Source: Cyanidioschyzon merolae (Eukaryota). Taken from it: a stretch of DNA of 64,000 nucleotides. The position numbers were made by a program, and so were the translations under genes. This document shows positions 12,117 through 23,797 of this stretch, piece after piece; position 1 is the first letter of the stretch, and each line of letters begins with the position of its first letter. Under the pieces are notes generated by a model. The model ran no database searches and was not told where the DNA came from. It worked only from the letters and a program-made list of their open reading frames with translations. The DNA is taken from assembly GCA_000091205.1 (NCBI GenBank), contig AP006497.2; one strand, given 5' to 3'.

Positions 12117-13362
12117 AAACCAAGCTGATCAACAACCAACACGACGCTGGTCAAATGCTTGGACGCACGCGGGTTTCCCACAGCCTGCCAAGACGCCGTC
12201 GCAGGGTACCGGCAAACGCACTTGTGTGTATGTTGCTGAGTTGCGCGACGTTTCTGTGCATATCCGAAGCAGGAGCAGCAGTAGTTCCAGCCCAGGAAGC
12301 CTTTCGTTTCGACCTTTCAGGAACGTGTAGTGCGCACGTCGTTTTGACGAAAAGTCACCTTCCCTGCGATAACCGACGACTCAACCTGGACTGCAGGGTA
12401 AAGTCGTTGCAGCGCGTTCGGGTGTACGCGCGAGCTCCACGAGTCGCCAGTGAGTGCCTCGGCATACCTCGACCTCGACGGTGTTCGTTGAACCCAGAAC
12501 ACGAATTCGGGAGCTTGGTTGCCTCAAGGCGAAAGCGAGCGACAGGCACTTCTCGGAGTCTGTGGGTGTTTCTGGTGCCTATCCCAGTCTGTGGCCGGAG
12601 TGTGTCCGTTCGTCCAGTTCAAGCGGAGGTGTACCGAGTGTCTTGAGCAGCGTGCGGACGTCTGGGTGTCACGGTGGCTCTCTGTGGTGCGTCCTGCCTT
12701 CACGGGCGTGATTCAGACTGCACCCGCGAGCATGCGCTACTCACTCGTGCTGCAAACGCCCGCCACCTGCGCAGTGTTGCAGGCGAGAGACAGCGGAACC
12801 TACCGCTATGCGACTTGGCGTTAGGTGCGTAGGTATATGCGTTTATGCGACGGAAGCAACGTTGTTGTCGAGTACCTGCCCGCGGGTTATCTGGGACCGT
12901 GTTGAGATTCACGTTTACGCATTCTCTATATATGCTGCCTTTAGATGAAGCTGCCGCCTAGCCTAGCCAAGCGCATCTCTTCCTAGGCACCAGAACCCGC
13001 TCTGGTCCAAGATATGCACGCGTATCCATTCCCGGCTTTTTGGTGACGCTCAGGGAGTATTCCTTGTCCGGCTGGGTATGCCACTACTTGATCAGCGCTT
13101 TCAAAAGCAGATGCCAGCCCCGCGCACCAGCGCGTCCAGCGTTTACATTACAGGCTTGCACACCGCCGCTACCCGCTGGTATCATACGCCGGTTTGTCTT
13201 CATCGTGAAGCTCTTCGTTCCACGACTTGCTCTACCAGAGTCTCCGATGCCGCGGTAGCATGTCTGGGAATGCTCTACCTCCGGCAAACGCACACACACT
13301 CACTCCTTCACAACAACAACAACAACAACCAATGGGAATCGAACAAGGCACAGATGCACGCC

Positions 13363-16300
13363 TCAGGTGCCGCTTTCAAGTGCATCCAATCCACGAACGA
13401 CGTGAACGGACATGTGGACTTTGGTGACGCACGAGTTCGCCAACAGGTGCACTGCTCGCCAAACAACATCCGGCTCGATGTCGCCCAGGTGTTGTACTGG
13501 TCGCCGCAACGCCAGCGCATGCGTATGAGAGAGCAGCAGCGACGGGTGCTGCTGCAGCTCCGAACGGATCCTCTGCAGCGCCATGAGTCGACAAGTGTGG
13601 CACGAATGATCGCCCTGGTCAGCAACGTGTCCATCTTGGGGCGTCTGCTGCTCAGGCGAGGCATCGACGGTATCGCGATCCGCATAGAGTTGGAAGTAGC
13701 CGCGGTAGAGGTGTGCATCCAGGGCCGTGCGAAATGCCTCATCCTCAATGGCTTCCGCGACGCTCAACAGACCCACTACGGCTGCGGGTTGAGAGCCGGT
13801 GATCAGATTCGGCTCTCGATAGTACTTGTGGCGATTGGCAATCACATTTTCGTTGAAAACGGGCGCCCGTGAAATAGCTGTCGCTGTGAAATGCGAAAAC
13901 TCAGCGATGCCGTAGAAGAACAGGGGGTTCGTCGTTCCCGTCTGCAGGTACAGATCATTGAGTACACGTGACCACGGCAGGCCTGCTGGTATTTTCTTGG
14001 AGCCAGCATTGGTACCCTGAACCCCGGTAGGCAATTGCACGCCGGGCGCCTCGTATGATACGTAAAAGTCGGGTACAGCACCCTGGGGCATGCCCAGGAA
14101 CGCGACACTCGAGAGGTACCGTCCACGCACCGTGCGGTAGTACTCGGCTGGTGGCGCCTCAGGCGCTTCCGCTGGGCTTTGCTGCTGATTGCTGGTCCCG
14201 TCGGACGTCGCTGGAGACGTTGCTGCTGGCAGTTCACCGGTCAGCGTACAATACGCAGTCCCGTGAACGATGATGGCTTCACCCATGGTCTCCGGCGGAC
14301 GACCGTCCACGGTGCCCAGCTCAAAACCCGCAATATAGTCTTGGGAATCGATTGGAATCCGCGACAGCGCCTCTACGGACGGTATCTTACCCTCGATGAG
14401 GTTCCGCACGGAGCCCAGCGCTCGTGCTCGGCTGCCTGGCGGTTGTGGTGCATGTGGATGCAGGTTGTAGACCTTGACCGGGCTCTGGTTGGAATCCGGA
14501 CTGGACTCCAGCGGCTCTACCAGGAGTTTCTGGGAGGCGATGCAACCGAAAAAGTCGCCACTGCGCAGTAGCTGCAAAAGATATTCGCGATCCTCAGTTG
14601 ACAACGCGGCGCTCGCGGCAACATCCTCCGTTTCGCCCGCGGATTCAGCGTCCATCCGCTGACGCTGTCGATGCACCATGATAAAGCTGTCGAAAACCTG
14701 GCGGGCAATCCGCATCTCTTCGGGTGAGATGAGTCCGTCGTTGTCCAGGTCAAAGATACTCAACAGCTCCATGTCGCTAGCAGTGAGCGCCTCGGTAGGC
14801 AGGTATTCGGCAATCAGACGCAATACTGGTACCCGGTTGCTTTCCACGGTGGCGTACTCGGCCTTGAGCTCAGGGCTCTCGACCAGATCGATGAGGAACG
14901 AGTGCCGGGCATCGCCTCGTTGCTGTGCAGCAAGAGCGGACTCCAACGCCGCCGGTGCTTCCGCTGGTCGCTGGACGCGGGCGAAGCCCATACGGTACGC
15001 CTGGGCGAGTCGCTGCAAGTCTGGAAGGATGATTTCGTCGCCAGCGACGCCAGTATTCCCAAAGCGTACCCGTCCCATAACGCCGTTGCGGAGGACAATC
15101 ACGACAAGGTTATCGAGGCCCTGCTGCAGGGCAGTTCCAAGTTCCTGTTCAGCCATTTCGAAACCGCCATCGCCAGTGATGAGGTAGACGACACCCTCGC
15201 TTTTGCGTCTCTTCAGCGAGACGCCCATCGAAACGGCAGCCGGAACCGCGTACCCCATACTGCCCATGTTGATGCTGGAAAGCAGACGCGTTCCCTGCCC
15301 ATCGAAACAGAGGCAGAGACCTGCCCAGATGGTAACATCTCCGATATCCACAACCACAACATCGTCTGGACCAAGTTTCGCGGACAAGGCGGTGAGCAGG
15401 TGGCGCGGATGACAGAAGCCGCGTACCTCATCATCGCCCTCGTCAGCGGTATCGTCTGTGTCCAGCATGGAGCGCCTGCCAGTGACCATAGCGTGTGGCG
15501 TTTTGCTCAAAACTGCAGCACGACGCGGCGATGAAGGCAATGAAGCTTGACGCTCACGCCATTCACCGTCTAAAAAGTACTTCCAGAGCCGGCTCGAGTA
15601 GTCCCGGGCCTGTTGAGGGCCCGGCGGCAGCATGCGCTTTGATTGCATCTCCCGCACGCTCGCTGTTAGTGCGCTCAGCAGGGCCTCCAATTCAGGATCG
15701 ATAAGCATACACTCCACATGGTAGTAGACCTGGAGGCGCGTAGCCAGTGTATCGTCTACACCGAATACTCGGACCTGCTGTTGACCAGTAGAATCGAGCA
15801 CGACTGGATCGCAACGATCGACGCCTATCGCCAGAATACACTCGGCAGTGCTGACGAGGGCCCGCGGCGCTGCCATGCCGGGGTTCCCAAAGATCCCGTC
15901 AACACCGAGTACCAGCGGGTGATGCTCATCGACGGCACCCTTGGCGTCCAGTGTGGTAATCACCGGCGCACAGAGCGTTTCTGCGAGTTTCAAAATCGTA
16001 CTCGAGCAACGAGCCTGTGCTGCACGCAACCCGCACAGAATGACGACGCGATGTCCCAGCAGAAGGCGTCCAGCGTGCTCCACGGAAACGGCAGCGCAGC
16101 GCGGTACCTCGGCAATATGAAAGGGAAGGCGAGCCAGGGCGCTCTCGTCTGAGGGCGACGTCTGCACATCTACTGGTATCGCCAGATGTGCTGCTGTGCT
16201 TCGCTCCAGGGCGAAGCGGATAGCCGAGTCCAGCAGAGAAAGGAAGCGATCGGCAGTCATGGGGGCCTTGGCAAACTGGACGCCTGCTCCGTGCATCAGT

Positions 16301-16674
16301 TGTGCTGTTCGGGTGTCCTGGAAGCCCTCGTGTCCGATGTTACTCCGCGACACGAGGCCGCTGAGTAGGAGCACCGGCACAGAGTCCGCAAGCGCATCCA
16401 CCATGCCGCACACGGTGTAGGCGGCACCCGGACCCGAGGTGGTAACGCACACACCCAGCTTCCGATAATACTTGGCGTATGCAGATGCGGCAAACGGTGC
16501 GGCAGTTTCGTTTCGAACGAGAACCCAGTGCAGACGTGGATGCTGCACAATCGCTGTGATAAGAGGACTCGCAGCTGCTCCGTGTCCACCGAACACGAGC
16601 TCCACGTTTGCCGCCGCAAGCCGGTCTGCAATCAGGTTCGCAATGGTGTACGTGCTACCACGACTCGCTGGCAT
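13363..16674 (-). CDS. thiamine-diphosphate-dependent enzyme (acetolactate synthase / 2-hydroxyacyl-CoA lyase superfamily) fused to an EF-hand and a ~400-aa C-terminal domain of unknown function
   Basis: N-terminal Pyr domain (GVCVTTSGPGAAYTVCGMVDALADSVPVLLLSG...GFQD) and C-terminal TPP-binding GDG...N motif (VYLITGDGGFEMAEQELGTALQQGLDNLVVIVLRNGVMG). A canonical EF-hand loop (DLDNDGLISPEEM) follows ~60 aa later, then ~400 aa with no recognisable domain, all in one uninterrupted 1103-codon frame. Track start 16695 is TTG; the first ATG gives MPASRGSTYTIANL at 16674. Confidence 0.8.
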   Translation of the reverse strand: MPASRGSTYTIANLIADRLAAANVELVFGGHGAAASPLITAIVQHPRLHWVLVRNETAAPFAASAYAKYYRKLGVCVTTSGPGAAYTVCGMVDALADSVPVLLLSGLVSRSNIGHEGFQDTRTAQLMHGAGVQFAKAPMTADRFLSLLDSAIRFALERSTAAHLAIPVDVQTSPSDESALARLPFHIAEVPRCAAVSVEHAGRLLLGHRVVILCGLRAAQARCSSTILKLAETLCAPVITTLDAKGAVDEHHPLVLGVDGIFGNPGMAAPRALVSTAECILAIGVDRCDPVVLDSTGQQQVRVFGVDDTLATRLQVYYHVECMLIDPELEALLSALTASVREMQSKRMLPPGPQQARDYSSRLWKYFLDGEWRERQASLPSSPRRAAVLSKTPHAMVTGRRSMLDTDDTADEGDDEVRGFCHPRHLLTALSAKLGPDDVVVVDIGDVTIWAGLCLCFDGQGTRLLSSINMGSMGYAVPAAVSMGVSLKRRKSEGVVYLITGDGGFEMAEQELGTALQQGLDNLVVIVLRNGVMGRVRFGNTGVAGDEIILPDLQRLAQAYRMGFARVQRPAEAPAALESALAAQQRGDARHSFLIDLVESPELKAEYATVESNRVPVLRLIAEYLPTEALTASDMELLSIFDLDNDGLISPEEMRIARQVFDSFIMVHRQRQRMDAESAGETEDVAASAALSTEDREYLLQLLRSGDFFGCIASQKLLVEPLESSPDSNQSPVKVYNLHPHAPQPPGSRARALGSVRNLIEGKIPSVEALSRIPIDSQDYIAGFELGTVDGRPPETMGEAIIVHGTAYCTLTGELPAATSPATSDGTSNQQQSPAEAPEAPPAEYYRTVRGRYLSSVAFLGMPQGAVPDFYVSYEAPGVQLPTGVQGTNAGSKKIPAGLPWSRVLNDLYLQTGTTNPLFFYGIAEFSHFTATAISRAPVFNENVIANRHKYYREPNLITGSQPAAVVGLLSVAEAIEDEAFRTALDAHLYRGYFQLYADRDTVDASPEQQTPQDGHVADQGDHSCHTCRLMALQRIRSELQQHPSLLLSHTHALALRRPVQHLGDIEPDVVWRAVHLLANSCVTKVHMSVHVVRGLDALESGT

Positions 16675-17861
16675 CTTGGAGGTGGTACTATTCAATGCTT
16701 CAGCACGCGCCCAGTCAAGTTCTTGGTGCTGGTCGAGCGTCTGTCTCTGGAGTTACCGCTTGTGTGAGGCGTTACGGGTAGCCTGCGGTGGCAACTTGAT
16801 CGAACCGTGCGCTCTCTGAGCAAAGCCTCCACTGGATACCTTCGGGCAACGCGAGCTGAGCGAAATGCAGCCACAAACTATCGTCTACGAACTTTGAAGC
16901 GACTCTGAGATAGGACCTAGCGACGCAGTTCACCCTGAAAAGTCGATGTTCGGTTGCGAGCAGGCAGAGCAGCTTGTTCAGTCTGATACGTCAGCAACTG
17001 CCTCTCTGGAATACACCTTTTATTGGCAGCGCTCCCTGATTATAAACACTGTTTGCAATCACCTCTCCAGATTTATGGGATGCACTCGTCACACTGGTTC
17101 TGTGGAGTCGCGTTCAGGCCGGTGCGCCAACAAGTGCCTCCCTGGACCAAACCGGTTATTGAGGGTGCTCGCCGATGAAACACACCGTTCGCAGTCGCTT
17201 TTCCAGATCTATAAGATGCACTTGTCAAACCTGTTCCCTCGAGTCGCGTTTCGCGCTGTGGCACTCCCTCGAGGAGGCAAGTGGTTGCGTAGGACACGAG
17301 GCCGCCTGCCGGTCGTTGCAACGTCTGGTACCCCGAGCGCGATACGATGCGTCTCGCGTGGCTCTGGAGCCGTGTGGAGCACCCGCCACCCAGCGACTGT
17401 GAGGCCGAAAGCCCAGCGATGCAGATCATCAGGAGTGCCGCTCAACCGGGATCATCGAACTTCATCTGATTCCGCTTCAGCTCAGTTAACTCCAATGAAT
17501 TCCAGTTTATCTCTTCTGACCTCATTCCATCTCAAATGATCCCACTCGTTGGGATAGCAAGGACGCTTGGTAATTTTGCAGGGTACGCATCAGGAATATA
17601 AGAGCTATCATGAATACTCATCACGAGAGGCACTTGGCGCTGGGAGAGTCCCACGAACGAATGAAAGGATCACCGGAGGCAAGTATAGGTCATGGCGAGT
17701 GGTCAGCAGAACGCTCGGGAGAGATCGTGAGGCGTCATCACGACTGCCTGCCCGGAAACCGATACGCGTCGTGCAGTTGGGAATCCCTGTTTGCTCTACG
17801 CGATGCAACGTCATGGTTATCCATCGAGGGTGGCGCTCGGGCTGGTCTACTGGAGCGCGTG

Positions 17862-17884
17862 CACGCACGCACACACACACACAC
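17862..17884. repeat. (CA)n microsatellite
   Basis: gcacgcacacacacacacacac in the divergent intergenic region. Confidence 0.9.
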
Positions 17885-18640: not shown

Positions 18641-20245
18641 ATGCTGACGTCAGCAGCTGACGACTTGTCGTCGGGATATCGGGAGGTAAGGGCGGAGCTG
18701 GGCGAAGCCTTTCGGAGTGGGGCAACACGCTCGCTTCGTTGGCGTGCAGCGCAGCTGGAAGCCCTGAAGCAGGCGCTAGTGGAACAGGAGCGCGCAATCA
18801 TCGCGGCATTAGCTGATGATCTCGGGAAGAGTGCTGAAGAGAGTCAGCTTACCGAGCTACAACCCGCACTCCAGGAACTAGCGTTGGCGCTGGGGAACCT
18901 GAAGCTCTGGGCTGGGCCCCGCACGGTAGAACCCTGCTTAGCACCCAAGTATCTGGCGCCGTGGTTCTGGTTGCAACGTGTTTGGCGCGCGGTGCTTCCT
19001 CGAGTACTGGGCGGTGGCAACCCGCCGGTGGCAAGTTACGGCGGCGTAGCACTGGCGACGATACTGGAGCGTCGCTGGGTCGTTCCTGAACCACTGGGCG
19101 TGGTGCTGATCATCACAGCCTGGAACTATCCTCTACTGCTTGCGATTTGGCATATGACAAGTGCTATCGCCGCTGGGAACTGTGTCGTCTTGAAACCAAG
19201 TGAACGTGCTCCTGCAACAGCAAAACTGCTGGCAGAGCTGGTGCGCACCTATCTCGATGCTCGCTGCATCCGAGTCGTGCTGGGCGATGCCAGCACTGTT
19301 CGGCGTCTGCTTCATCTGGATACCGAGTGTCCGGCGGATGTTGCGTTCCGCGTTTGGGCACAGCAGCGCCCTTTTGATGCGGTGCATTTCACGGGCGGCT
19401 GGAGGATTGGGCGTGAAATCGCACGCGCTTGTGCGGCCTACCTGATACCGTGCACGCTCGAACTGGGCGGTAAGAATCCGCTTGTGGTGGACTGTGCATC
19501 GCTGTCCGAGCGAGACTTGGCTCGGGTTGCCCGAACGACCGCATGGGCCAAGTTACTGAACGTGGGTCAGACGTGCATCGCCCCGGATTATGTGGTTCTA
19601 TGCGGTGCAGACCGGGCACAGGAGGCGTTCTTCATAGAAGAGATGTGGAAATCGATTGAAGCATTCTACGGGAGGCCAGTGGAAAACAGCACGACCTTCC
19701 CACGGATCGTGAGCAAGGCACATACCGCCCGTCTGGCGGACCTGCTCCAACAAAGCCGTGGTGAGGTTGTGTTCGGTGGAACCCACCGAGAGAATGACTG
19801 CTTTTTCACGCCGACCATTGTGCGCAATGTGACTCTGGATGATGCGCTGATGGCGGAGGAGATTTTCGGGCCGATACTGGTTGTTCTGCAGCCGTGTGCT
19901 GGTACCGAACAAGCGCTCGAGGTGATCGGGAGTCTACCATCTCCGCTGGTAGTCTATCTAATGTCTCGTGACGCTGCTGTGGTGCAGCGTTTTGAACGGG
20001 CATCCACCTCTGGATCGCTTGTCGTGAATGATCTGCTGGGTCAGGTAATCTCGCCGGGTCTTCCGTTTGGCGGGGTCGGCGCTTCTGGATACGGCAAGTC
20101 CAAAGGTCAAGCGGGGTTCGATGCGTTCTCGAACCTCAAGAGTGTCCTCTGCAAACCGATATGGATAGAGCGAATAGCGAGTGATCGCTACCATCCACTA
20201 ACCGCTACCAAGATCAGTCGTTTTCGTCGCTTAATCGCGCTCTGA
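18641..20245 (+). CDS. aldehyde dehydrogenase, ALDH3 family (fatty-aldehyde-dehydrogenase-like)
   Basis: ATG start. ALDH3-type motifs: LIITAWNYPLLLAIWHMTSAIAAGNCVVLKPSE, TLELGGKNP, catalytic Cys in LLNVGQTCIAPDYVVL (compare ALDH3A1 MNSGQTCVAPDYIL), EIFGPILVV. 534 aa. Confidence 0.9.
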   Translation: MLTSAADDLSSGYREVRAELGEAFRSGATRSLRWRAAQLEALKQALVEQERAIIAALADDLGKSAEESQLTELQPALQELALALGNLKLWAGPRTVEPCLAPKYLAPWFWLQRVWRAVLPRVLGGGNPPVASYGGVALATILERRWVVPEPLGVVLIITAWNYPLLLAIWHMTSAIAAGNCVVLKPSERAPATAKLLAELVRTYLDARCIRVVLGDASTVRRLLHLDTECPADVAFRVWAQQRPFDAVHFTGGWRIGREIARACAAYLIPCTLELGGKNPLVVDCASLSERDLARVARTTAWAKLLNVGQTCIAPDYVVLCGADRAQEAFFIEEMWKSIEAFYGRPVENSTTFPRIVSKAHTARLADLLQQSRGEVVFGGTHRENDCFFTPTIVRNVTLDDALMAEEIFGPILVVLQPCAGTEQALEVIGSLPSPLVVYLMSRDAAVVQRFERASTSGSLVVNDLLGQVISPGLPFGGVGASGYGKSKGQAGFDAFSNLKSVLCKPIWIERIASDRYHPLTATKISRFRRLIAL

Positions 20246-22467: not shown

Positions 22468-22798
22468 GCATCACTATCGTTCGTCTTCGTAAGTCTTTTA
22501 TTGGATATAAAGGCATCAGATCAGGCGTGCGCAGGTGATTACTGTACATAACGGCCATATGTGATGCTGGTGCGCGCACGCGTTTTTCCAGCAGCGCTCC
22601 TTCGCCGCCGTTTGACGATACCGGCCGCTGACGGGCGCGACACGTGTCCACAAGCGCTCAGGGAGCGCGTGTCCATACGACCTGGCGGTGCCGATTTACA
22701 GGGCGCGCGTTCATGCTGCGGCAGGTGAGAGCGCTTTAGAACAATCCTCGTGTGCTGCGTCCGAGGTCCTGCGTTCGAGTCGTGGACAGCGTGCGTCA

Positions 22799-23797
22799 AT
22801 GACAGAGTGCTACACACTAACACGGCGCGTAGTCCGTGCACACAACCATGAAAACGACGCCTGGGTGATCGTTCGTGGTGGTGTCTATGACGTGACGGGG
22901 TTCTTGCGGTACCACCCGGGCGGGCGGGACGTCCTCTTGAAGCGTTTGGGCGAGGACGTCACCAGTGTTATGAACGGCGAGCTCAAAGGTGGTCACGAGC
23001 ACTCCAGTGCGGCGTATAAAATTCTGCAGCAGTACTACGTAGGCCCGCTGGCTGACGCGGACGCTTCTCCCGCAGAGGCAGCCGCCCTAGACGGCACGCT
23101 GGACGAGCACGGTAGACCGCTGGTCGACTTTAGTAAGCCGCTTCTGGACCAGGTTGGTAAGCTTGGGGATAAGTATCACCGCTGGGTGCATTCTTTTCCG
23201 ACCAGCGACCATCATGTGGCCCTTTTCGCGAACCCGACGCTCGAGTCACTGACAAAGTGTCCCTGGTACGTGCCGCTAGTGTTCTGGATTCCGATCTTTG
23301 TCTGCGGGCTGTGGTTTGTGTTTGCGCGCCTCGGTTGCTCGTTTGTTCGAGATTTCCTACCGTTCACGACGTTTGGCTATATATTTTGGATGTTCTTCGA
23401 ATATCTGTTACATCGATATGTATTTCACGTGCGGACCGGGACGTACTGGTCGAATATCTTTCATTTTCTTATTCATGGACATCACCACCTGGCGCCGATG
23501 GATTATGATCGACTCGTGTTTCCACCGATTCCCGCAGCGCTCGTCTCGATGCCGGTATGGCTGACTGCACCTCGAGTGTTTGGTCTCGTGCGCGGACTGT
23601 GCTTCCTTTTTGGATTCGGTGTTGGGTACCTTCAGTACGACATGACACACTTTCTGGTGCATTATGGAACGCTACGTACGGGGTTCTTAGCCGCTCAGAA
23701 ACGGCGGCACATGATACACCATTTCAAAGCACCAGGGGCGAATTTTGGTATCAGTGTTCCCGTGCTGGACATTGTGTTCGGGACATTGCACCGGTAA
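22799..23797 (+). CDS. FA2H: fatty acid 2-hydroxylase (FA2H/Scs7-like) with N-terminal cytochrome b5 domain
   Basis: Cytochrome b5 heme-binding region (HNHENDAWVIVRGGVYDVTGFLRYHPGG) followed by a multi-TM fatty-acid-hydroxylase domain with His boxes (HRYVFHV, HGHHHLAP, HMIHHF). Track start 22688 is GTG; the first ATG (MTECYTL) is at 22799, immediately before the b5 domain. Confidence 0.85.
   Translation: MTECYTLTRRVVRAHNHENDAWVIVRGGVYDVTGFLRYHPGGRDVLLKRLGEDVTSVMNGELKGGHEHSSAAYKILQQYYVGPLADADASPAEAAALDGTLDEHGRPLVDFSKPLLDQVGKLGDKYHRWVHSFPTSDHHVALFANPTLESLTKCPWYVPLVFWIPIFVCGLWFVFARLGCSFVRDFLPFTTFGYIFWMFFEYLLHRYVFHVRTGTYWSNIFHFLIHGHHHLAPMDYDRLVFPPIPAALVSMPVWLTAPRVFGLVRGLCFLFGFGVGYLQYDMTHFLVHYGTLRTGFLAAQKRRHMIHHFKAPGANFGISVPVLDIVFGTLHR

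Follow-up and report, generated by a model that had tools for sequence, protein, structure and literature searches.

A red algal gene joining a thiamine pyrophosphate enzyme, an EF-hand linker and a predicted acetolactate decarboxylase-fold domain

The closest described systems are the alsSD and budABC operons, co-transcribed bacterial genes that pair an acetolactate synthase (ALS; AlsS/BudB), a three-domain thiamine pyrophosphate (TPP) enzyme with a catalytic Glu and a GDG...N motif, with an alpha-acetolactate decarboxylase (ALDC; AlsD/BudA, PF03306, EC 4.1.1.5; PDB 4BT2, 5XNE, 5YHO, 6INB and 1XV2). ALDC is generally regarded as bacterial. Here, we describe a gene of the red alga Cyanidioschyzon merolae, located within a 64,000-nucleotide stretch of contig AP006497.2 (assembly GCA_000091205.1; hereafter the window), whose product joins a TPP enzyme to a C-terminal domain of predicted ALDC fold through a linker that carries an EF-hand. 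Both catalytic folds and the acetoin pathway are already known; the unannotated ALDC-fold family, the eukaryotic fusion to a TPP enzyme and the embedded EF-hand are new.

13363..16674, minus strand: complete coding sequence for the TPP enzyme, EF-hand linker and ALDC-fold domain; protein P0001 is 100% identical to its product, and P0002, P0029 and P0004 are collinear orthologs

An earlier note on this DNA had described a single 1103-codon frame, without its strand. Re-translation verified the coordinates of an uninterrupted open reading frame (ORF) of 1103 codons plus TGA on the minus strand, and the C-terminal string quoted in that note was also found. The proposed fusion, in which one ORF combines a full TPP enzyme with an EF-hand-type loop and a further large domain, is genuine and its architecture unusual.

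We regard it as rather probable that the protein is bifunctional: alpha-acetolactate would be made by an ALS-like module and turned into acetoin by a fused, metal-dependent ALDC-fold module, with the EF-hand between them possibly conferring Ca2+ sensitivity. The N-terminal ~600 residues, a TPP enzyme of the ALS/pyruvate oxidase branch, would convert two pyruvates to alpha-acetolactate. The C-terminal ~370 residues, with the ALDC fold, a Thr/Glu pair and a cluster of three His residues, would coordinate a divalent metal and form acetoin by decarboxylation of the unstable acetolactate, and the fusion would hand this labile intermediate straight from the synthase site to the decarboxylase site. 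More speculatively, Ca2+ may tune activity or domain arrangement through the canonical EF-hand loop of the ~130-residue linker.

As in the bacterial systems, a synthase-type enzyme with three TPP domains, the catalytic Glu and the GDG...N motif is paired with an ALDC-fold protein, in the alga as a fusion. The bacterial partners are encoded by co-transcribed genes, whereas the algal ones are eukaryotic, nuclear-encoded and covalently connected via the EF-hand linker. Sequence identity between ALDC and the new family is 8-14%; the latter has an extra helical segment, to which the red alga adds three disordered inserts and the fusion to the synthase. Human PTD012/C11orf54 (PDB 1XCR), a Zn-containing ester hydrolase, belongs to the same fold superfamily as the ALDC-like domain. 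Structural similarity to it is lower than to ALDC, and it has no detectable sequence relationship to the new family and no known link to a TPP enzyme.

The following features were assigned to the C-terminal region:

13366..14472, minus strand: C-terminal domain of predicted ALDC fold, residues 735-1103
14146..14232, minus strand: lineage-specific low-complexity insert 1, residues 815-843, not present in stand-alone homologs; 14-33% identity between orthologs; predicted local distance difference test (pLDDT) score <50
13984..14049, minus strand: lineage-specific insert 2, residues 876-897, defined from the homolog alignment, the model and ortholog identity
13582..13680, minus strand: lineage-specific insert 3, residues 999-1031, defined in the same way

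No similarity had been recognised for this region in the earlier note. Judged by its predicted structure, it is a member of a ~265-residue family with the ALDC fold. When the C-terminal region or the family profile was used as query, word-indexed searches for homologs returned nothing or a single protein; the only search that retrieved the family was an exhaustive HMMER scan of residues 590-1103 against 1.84 billion representatives, which gave 64 matches. One group of these consists of other fusion proteins (P0038, P0033, P0036 and P0035), and a second of ~50 stand-alone proteins of 255-310 residues that can be aligned along their entire length over the full span of residues 735-1103, with large gaps only at the red-algal inserts.

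P0038 (987 residues) contains the three TPP domains, shares 33% identity with the window protein through the TPP module, linker and C-terminal domain, and is the sole ORF of a 3450-nucleotide transcript-like contig. The genomic contig that encodes P0036 carries an eIF-5A gene interrupted by an intron. Taken together, these two contigs show that the fusion exists in other eukaryotes, from which P0033 and P0035 also come, and the fusion is therefore not lineage-specific, a possibility raised in the earlier note. A search for orthologous fusions thus yielded these four proteins in addition to the collinear orthologs. A homologous fusion in an intron-bearing eukaryote (L014 1587-4881, and L013; Logan SRR30664515/17) was called as two overlapping ORFs of 578 residues (TPP_N and TPP_M) and 535 residues (TPP_C, linker and ALDC-like domain), which suggests an intron or frameshift where the calls meet.

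NCBIfam and Pfam gave a significant match in none of the 35 aligned family members. The predicted model of the C-terminal domain has the two-lobed beta fold of ALDC, and ALDCs rank above PTD012 in both fold searches. A full-length AF2 model built from four sequences had a pLDDT of 39 and was unusable; it gives no inter-domain packing. The proposal that the region might be a regulatory or partner domain was close to the mark as regards a partner. The regulatory part is not supported, the C-terminal domain being most likely a second catalytic domain.

Two groups of conserved residues mark the candidate active site:

14278..14313, minus strand: Thr788 to Glu799 ('GT...MGEA'), aligned by hhalign with ALDC Thr55 and Glu62 (Bacillus subtilis numbering)
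13447..13527, minus strand: His1050-x-His1052 and His1076, family-wide His triad and putative metal site

The conserved active-site residues of ALDC are Thr55, Glu62, His191, His193, His204, Arg142 and Glu251 (PMC9090609). In the family alignment (35 members, 28% mean column identity), the Gly of the 'GE' pair is invariant and its Glu is at least 90% conserved; His316 and His342 of alignment A2 (His1050 and His1076 of the window protein) are invariant, and His318 (His1052) is at least 90% conserved. The family was compared with a profile of 11 authentic ALDCs, compiled from PDB alignments and eight annotated budA genes from plasmids. This comparison gave an hhalign probability of 64% (E 6.7e-5, 93 columns), as opposed to 27% with three ALDCs, and placed the G(S/T) and G-E of the family on ALDC Thr55 and Glu62, corresponding to Thr788 and Glu799 in the window protein. 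In the predicted model, strand 314-322 carries the H-x-H motif and the strand after it, 337-343, the third His, an arrangement like that of the zinc-ligand hairpin in ALDC, but with 23 residues between the second and third His where ALDC has 10.

Evidence from gene order came from bacteria. When GTDB was scanned with one genome for each species, the stand-alone form was found in Legionella londiniensis (WP_058529649.1), in two Legionellaceae and four Chlamydiae metagenome-assembled genomes (MAGs) and in one uncultured bacterium. Immediately next to the gene, at five of the eight loci, is a same-strand ORF of ~550 residues with all three TPP domains, which scores 601-776 bits on the AlsS equivalog NF006378 (cut-off 510) and 574-729 bits on TIGR02418 (cut-off 551). 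A ninth locus, on the metagenome contig of P0077, has an ORF starting where the homolog ends and truncated by the contig edge, with 75% identity to the N-terminus of a chlamydial AlsS, and in total the stand-alone homolog directly adjoins AlsS, a genetic pairing, at six of nine bacterial loci. The order is AlsS followed by the homolog in Legionellaceae and the reverse in Chlamydiae, and both orders also occur among annotated alsS/budA pairs. No aco or butanediol dehydrogenase genes were found around the bacterial pairs, and no other acetoin gene was consistently near them. Given this pairing, the algal fusion and the bacterial gene pair are two forms of the same association. Chlamydial genomics has found acetolactate synthase in several families and annotated ALDC only in some Simkaniaceae (PMC9666466), a pattern that fits an unrecognised ALDC.

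Two further observations concern these bacteria. In one Chlamydiae MAG (L007 1856-5157), the ALDC-like/AlsS pair lies directly downstream of genes for pyruvate dehydrogenase E1-alpha, E1-beta and E2, all above NCBIfam cut-offs, such that two pyruvate-consuming systems stand side by side. The stand-alone family in the GTDB scan (L005-L012) is almost confined to Legionellaceae and Chlamydiae, intracellular associates of amoebae and other protists, and this distribution hints at gene exchange with eukaryotes.

The N-terminal part of the fusion contains the following features:

16312..16647, minus strand: TPP_enzyme_N (Pyr) domain, residues 10-121 (Pfam PF02776, 99.7 bits against a cut-off of 26.8)
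16507-16509, minus strand: cofactor-activating Glu56 ('RNE'), aligned with the catalytic Glu of catabolic ALS
15817..16056, minus strand: TPP_enzyme_M central domain, residues 207-286 (Pfam PF00205, 53.9 bits against 30.4)
15415..15654, minus strand: insertion between the M and C domains, residues 341-420, 41-58% identical among orthologs and also present in P0038
14926..15348, minus strand: TPP_enzyme_C (PP) domain, residues 443-583 (Pfam PF02775, 74.2 bits against 21.9)
15082-15174, minus strand: GDGG-x25-NG diphosphate/Mg motif, residues 501-531, read as intact from the translation

The completeness of the TPP module, from the Pyr domain to the GDG...N motif, is thus borne out by three Pfam domains above their cut-offs and by an intact Glu56 and GDGG...NG; the window protein has the three domains, catalytic Glu and motif of AlsS. 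The best PDB match of the module was an ancestral catabolic ALS, followed closely by PoxB and pyruvate oxidase, and its NCBIfam scores were 188 bits for biosynthetic ALS, 178 for PoxB and 176 for pyruvate oxidase, all far under the respective cut-offs. These best matches, of acetolactate synthase and pyruvate oxidase type, do not point to the lyase-type enzyme that had been supposed. Red-algal plastid genomes encode ilvB and ilvH. Where these plastid genes are present, the nuclear fusion gene would not be needed for the synthesis of branched-chain amino acids. The closest non-orthologs of the module (27-28% identity; the group of P0005-P0010 and P0013) are ~650-residue proteins combining the three TPP domains with a Rieske [2Fe-2S] domain (PF00355). 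In P0013 itself (946 residues), TPP domains are combined with Glu/Leu/Phe/Val dehydrogenase domains. All of these proteins are further unusual TPP-enzyme fusions.

Between the two catalytic modules lie:

14473..14874, minus strand: conserved linker, residues 601-734, kept in all eight fusion proteins (8/8) and matched by the linker profile
14716..14751, minus strand: 12-residue EF-hand loop DLDNDGLISPEE, residues 642-653, identified from sub-threshold Pfam matches, the linker profile and the translation

The linker consists, in order, of 'PELKAEYA', a helix-loop-helix EF-hand, a variable acidic stretch and an 'LLxxLRSGDFF' helix. An EF-hand was recognised by oxygen ligands at loop positions 1, 3, 5 and 12, Gly at 6, a hydrophobic residue at 8 and flanking helices; DLDNDGLISPEE agrees with the consensus at positions 1, 3, 5, 6, 8 and 12, and the full-length model, poor as it is, also has a helix on either side of the loop. 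Common to the eight fusion proteins are 'PELKAEYA', an LP(T/S) turn, a helix, the loop, an 'AR' helix and an 'LLxxLR(S/T/N)G' helix. Their loop consensus is D-x-(D/S/H)-x-(D/T)-G-x-(L/I)-(S/T)-x-x-E, fully canonical in six of the eight, and a second canonical loop (DKDKDSRLTEEE) occurs only in P0033, the equivalent red-algal stretch being variable and acidic. When the linker profile was compared with the PDB, the top matches were calmodulin, calcium-dependent protein kinase (CDPK) and centrin/Cdc31 (E 3.7e-6 to 5e-4), aligned in each case over the helix-loop-helix. Four Pfam EF-hand models match residues 636-656 under their cut-offs (EF-hand_5, 17.5 against 25.9; EF-hand_1, 17.1 against 25.4); such sub-gathering scores are common for a lone EF-hand. 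The Cyanidiococcus ortholog is named 'EF-hand domain-containing protein' in UniRef. The presence of an EF-hand in the linker is therefore well supported by sequence comparison, and the canonical loop reported earlier holds by consensus and profile, the single sequence falling under the Pfam cut-offs. CDPK-type enzymes with a built-in EF-hand/calmodulin-like module (PDB 2AAO) likewise have EF-hands covalently attached to a catalytic domain, and CDPK and calmodulin EF-hands align with the algal linker profile. By contrast, the regulatory lobe of CDPK is C-terminal and has four EF-hands, whereas the algal module lies between two metabolic enzyme domains and has, in the red alga, one canonical loop, a putative Ca2+ site.

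Several observations weigh against a pathway from pyruvate to acetoin. PF03306 gave no match to the window domain at E ≤ 1, and its matches to two of the 35 family members, at E ~0.02 and under threshold, were the sole recurring lead from the family scans; a sequence profile of the family searched against the PDB retrieved no ALDC and no solved relative. ALDC Arg142/145 is not conserved, the family having Ala or Thr there by hhalign, and no counterpart of the C-terminal-tail Glu251/253 and no conserved tail acid were found in the family alignment, which is unreliable in the tail. The His spacing is HxH-x23-H in the family, with a longer hairpin, as opposed to HxH-x10-H in ALDC. For the C-terminal half, hhalign gave two incompatible, non-significant registers of the His motif; it is the predicted strand topology that places a putative metal site at the triad. 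The TPP module does not reach the AlsS models (NF006378, 168.2 bits against 510; TIGR02418, 137.1 against 551), is only 27% identical to chlamydial AlsS and differs from AlsS/BudB in its 80-residue M-C insertion. By its scores, it appears to be a member of the ALS/pyruvate oxidase branch that is not assignable to AlsS, with biosynthetic ALS, PoxB and pyruvate oxidase models scoring alike. Moreover, three of the nine bacterial loci are without an adjacent AlsS, one of them being cut by the contig end, and no literature was found that links Cyanidiales to acetoin formation.

The alternative that survives best, possible although doubtful, retains the architecture with other chemistry: the TPP module would form another 2-hydroxy-3-oxo acid or acyloin from other 2-oxo acids or aldehydes, and the ALDC-fold domain would be an altered decarboxylase or a Zn hydrolase like PTD012/C11orf54. 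The divergence of both modules is in keeping with this, as is the Arg missing from the ALDC-fold family, although the corresponding Arg is directed away from the metal even in the genuine ALDC of E. cloacae (PMC9090609). The fold searches rank ALDCs above PTD012, the Thr and Glu align with ALDC residues that contact the substrate, and the bacterial members are linked specifically to AlsS proteins that pass curated equivalog cut-offs, all of which argues against this alternative.

A more tentative idea is that the ~265-residue family constitutes a distinct enzyme class on the ALDC scaffold, without the Arg and tail Glu and with a remodelled His hairpin, that in eukaryotes has been joined to a new type of TPP carboligase controlled directly by Ca2+. 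The result would be a calcium-gated two-step pathway with a product other than acetoin, or with other stereochemistry or substrates, and the presence of the family in Legionellaceae and Chlamydiae would reflect gene exchange between eukaryotes and intracellular bacteria.

It is unlikely that the C-terminal domain lacks catalytic activity and, on a retained ALDC/PPC fold, serves in regulation, ligand sensing or oligomerisation, modulating the TPP enzyme together with the EF-hand. Such a role would accommodate the lost PF03306 signature and the tolerance of large disordered inserts, and PPC proteins, single-domain relatives of the fold, are not enzymes of the acetoin pathway. Nevertheless, three His and a Glu that are invariant or nearly so at 28% mean column identity are typical of a metal active site, and the stand-alone form occupies an operon slot normally held by an enzyme, which argues for catalysis.

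That two adjacent genes have been read as one through a faulty assembly, an overlooked intron or a missed stop is effectively excluded: an unusual length and the splitting of a homolog in an intron-bearing eukaryote by prokaryotic gene callers are all that points this way, whereas assemblies made independently from at least three genera, along with many metagenome contigs, contain the same uninterrupted ORF, conservation is continuous across both domain junctions, and the complete fusion is one ORF on the 3450-nucleotide transcript-like contig of a distant relative.

The identical protein P0001 comes from JGI/Logan assemblies. Proteins of 1108 residues, including Cyanidiococcus yangmingshanensis KAK4530569.1, are 72% identical to the window protein, and Cyanidium caldarium KAK4536499.1 (1064 residues) is 58% identical; these orthologs of 1064-1108 residues are collinear with it from end to end. 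Among orthologs, the TPP domains are 63-86% identical and the EF-hand linker, on a par with them, 85% and 69%. The C-terminal core blocks are comparable to the TPP domains, at 72-82% identity against P0002 and 56-64% against Cyanidium, and the three low-complexity inserts are nearly unconstrained (14-35%). In the P0001 cluster, many metagenome gene calls are fragments of 227-676 residues labelled 'hypothetical protein', and full-length entries are labelled 'acetolactate synthase large subunit-like'; with such labels, existing annotation hides the C-terminal domain.

The minus-strand frame reaches up to a TTG at 16695 or an ATG at 16674, the latter being the first in-frame ATG; a stop codon lies 26 codons upstream of it, and there is no further in-frame upstream ATG. 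In the alignment, three orthologs share this start point, which leaves no room for an N-terminal targeting peptide. Given that no N-terminal extension is possible, the fusion protein is probably located in the cytosol.

If the bifunctional reading is correct, a function would be provided for a protein family without a Pfam or NCBIfam model, and the 'missing' decarboxylase would be supplied for Legionellaceae and Chlamydiae genomes in which AlsS is present but ALDC is not annotated (compare PMC9666466). Some eukaryotes, among them acid- and heat-loving red algae as well as other protists, would probably possess a neutral fermentation or overflow route of the acetoin type, and ending in a neutral product would be sensible for organisms that have to defend their cytosolic pH. 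The protein would also be a rare example of an EF-hand located between two catalytic domains of metabolic enzymes, and Ca2+ control of central carbon overflow would be directly testable. A full-text literature search found no paper combining acetolactate decarboxylase with Cyanidioschyzon or EF-hand; papers pairing it with Galdieria or natural ALS-ALDC fusions, or acetoin with Cyanidioschyzon, were unrelated to the fusion protein, and matches on Legionella were incidental.

The neighbours of the gene are eukaryotic (DNAJC11, SelO, an S41 peptidase with PDZ, LSm and Myb+JAB) and, together with the cyanidialean ortholog matches, identify the window as nuclear DNA of a cyanidialean red alga. Synteny on the LSm/S41/SelO side is held in all three genera. 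On the other side, an aldehyde dehydrogenase gene (18641-20245, plus strand) is divergent from the TPP gene across a gap of 1966 bp, and a cytochrome-b5/fatty-acid hydroxylase fusion (22688-23797, plus strand) lies 4 kb beyond. A fatty-acid alpha-oxidation cluster made up of these two genes and a TPP lyase was considered and rejected: the adjacency recurs in Cyanidiococcus-type contigs, but in Cyanidium this side carries CNNM, Dor1 and desaturase genes, and the TPP module scores do not favour HACL or oxalyl-CoA decarboxylase. The adjacency is probably ordinary synteny.

Three minor features were also observed. An ATG-initiated ORF of 264 residues runs antisense over the 3' end of the gene (13078-13872, plus strand); it is of low complexity, with an Asn run from a CAA repeat, and given this composition and its overlap with conserved coding sequence on the opposite strand, it is almost certainly spurious. 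A (CAA)6 microsatellite lies on the plus strand at 13311-13328, ~35 nucleotides past the stop codon of the gene, and an intergenic (CA)7 microsatellite is found at 17870-17883, toward the aldehyde dehydrogenase.

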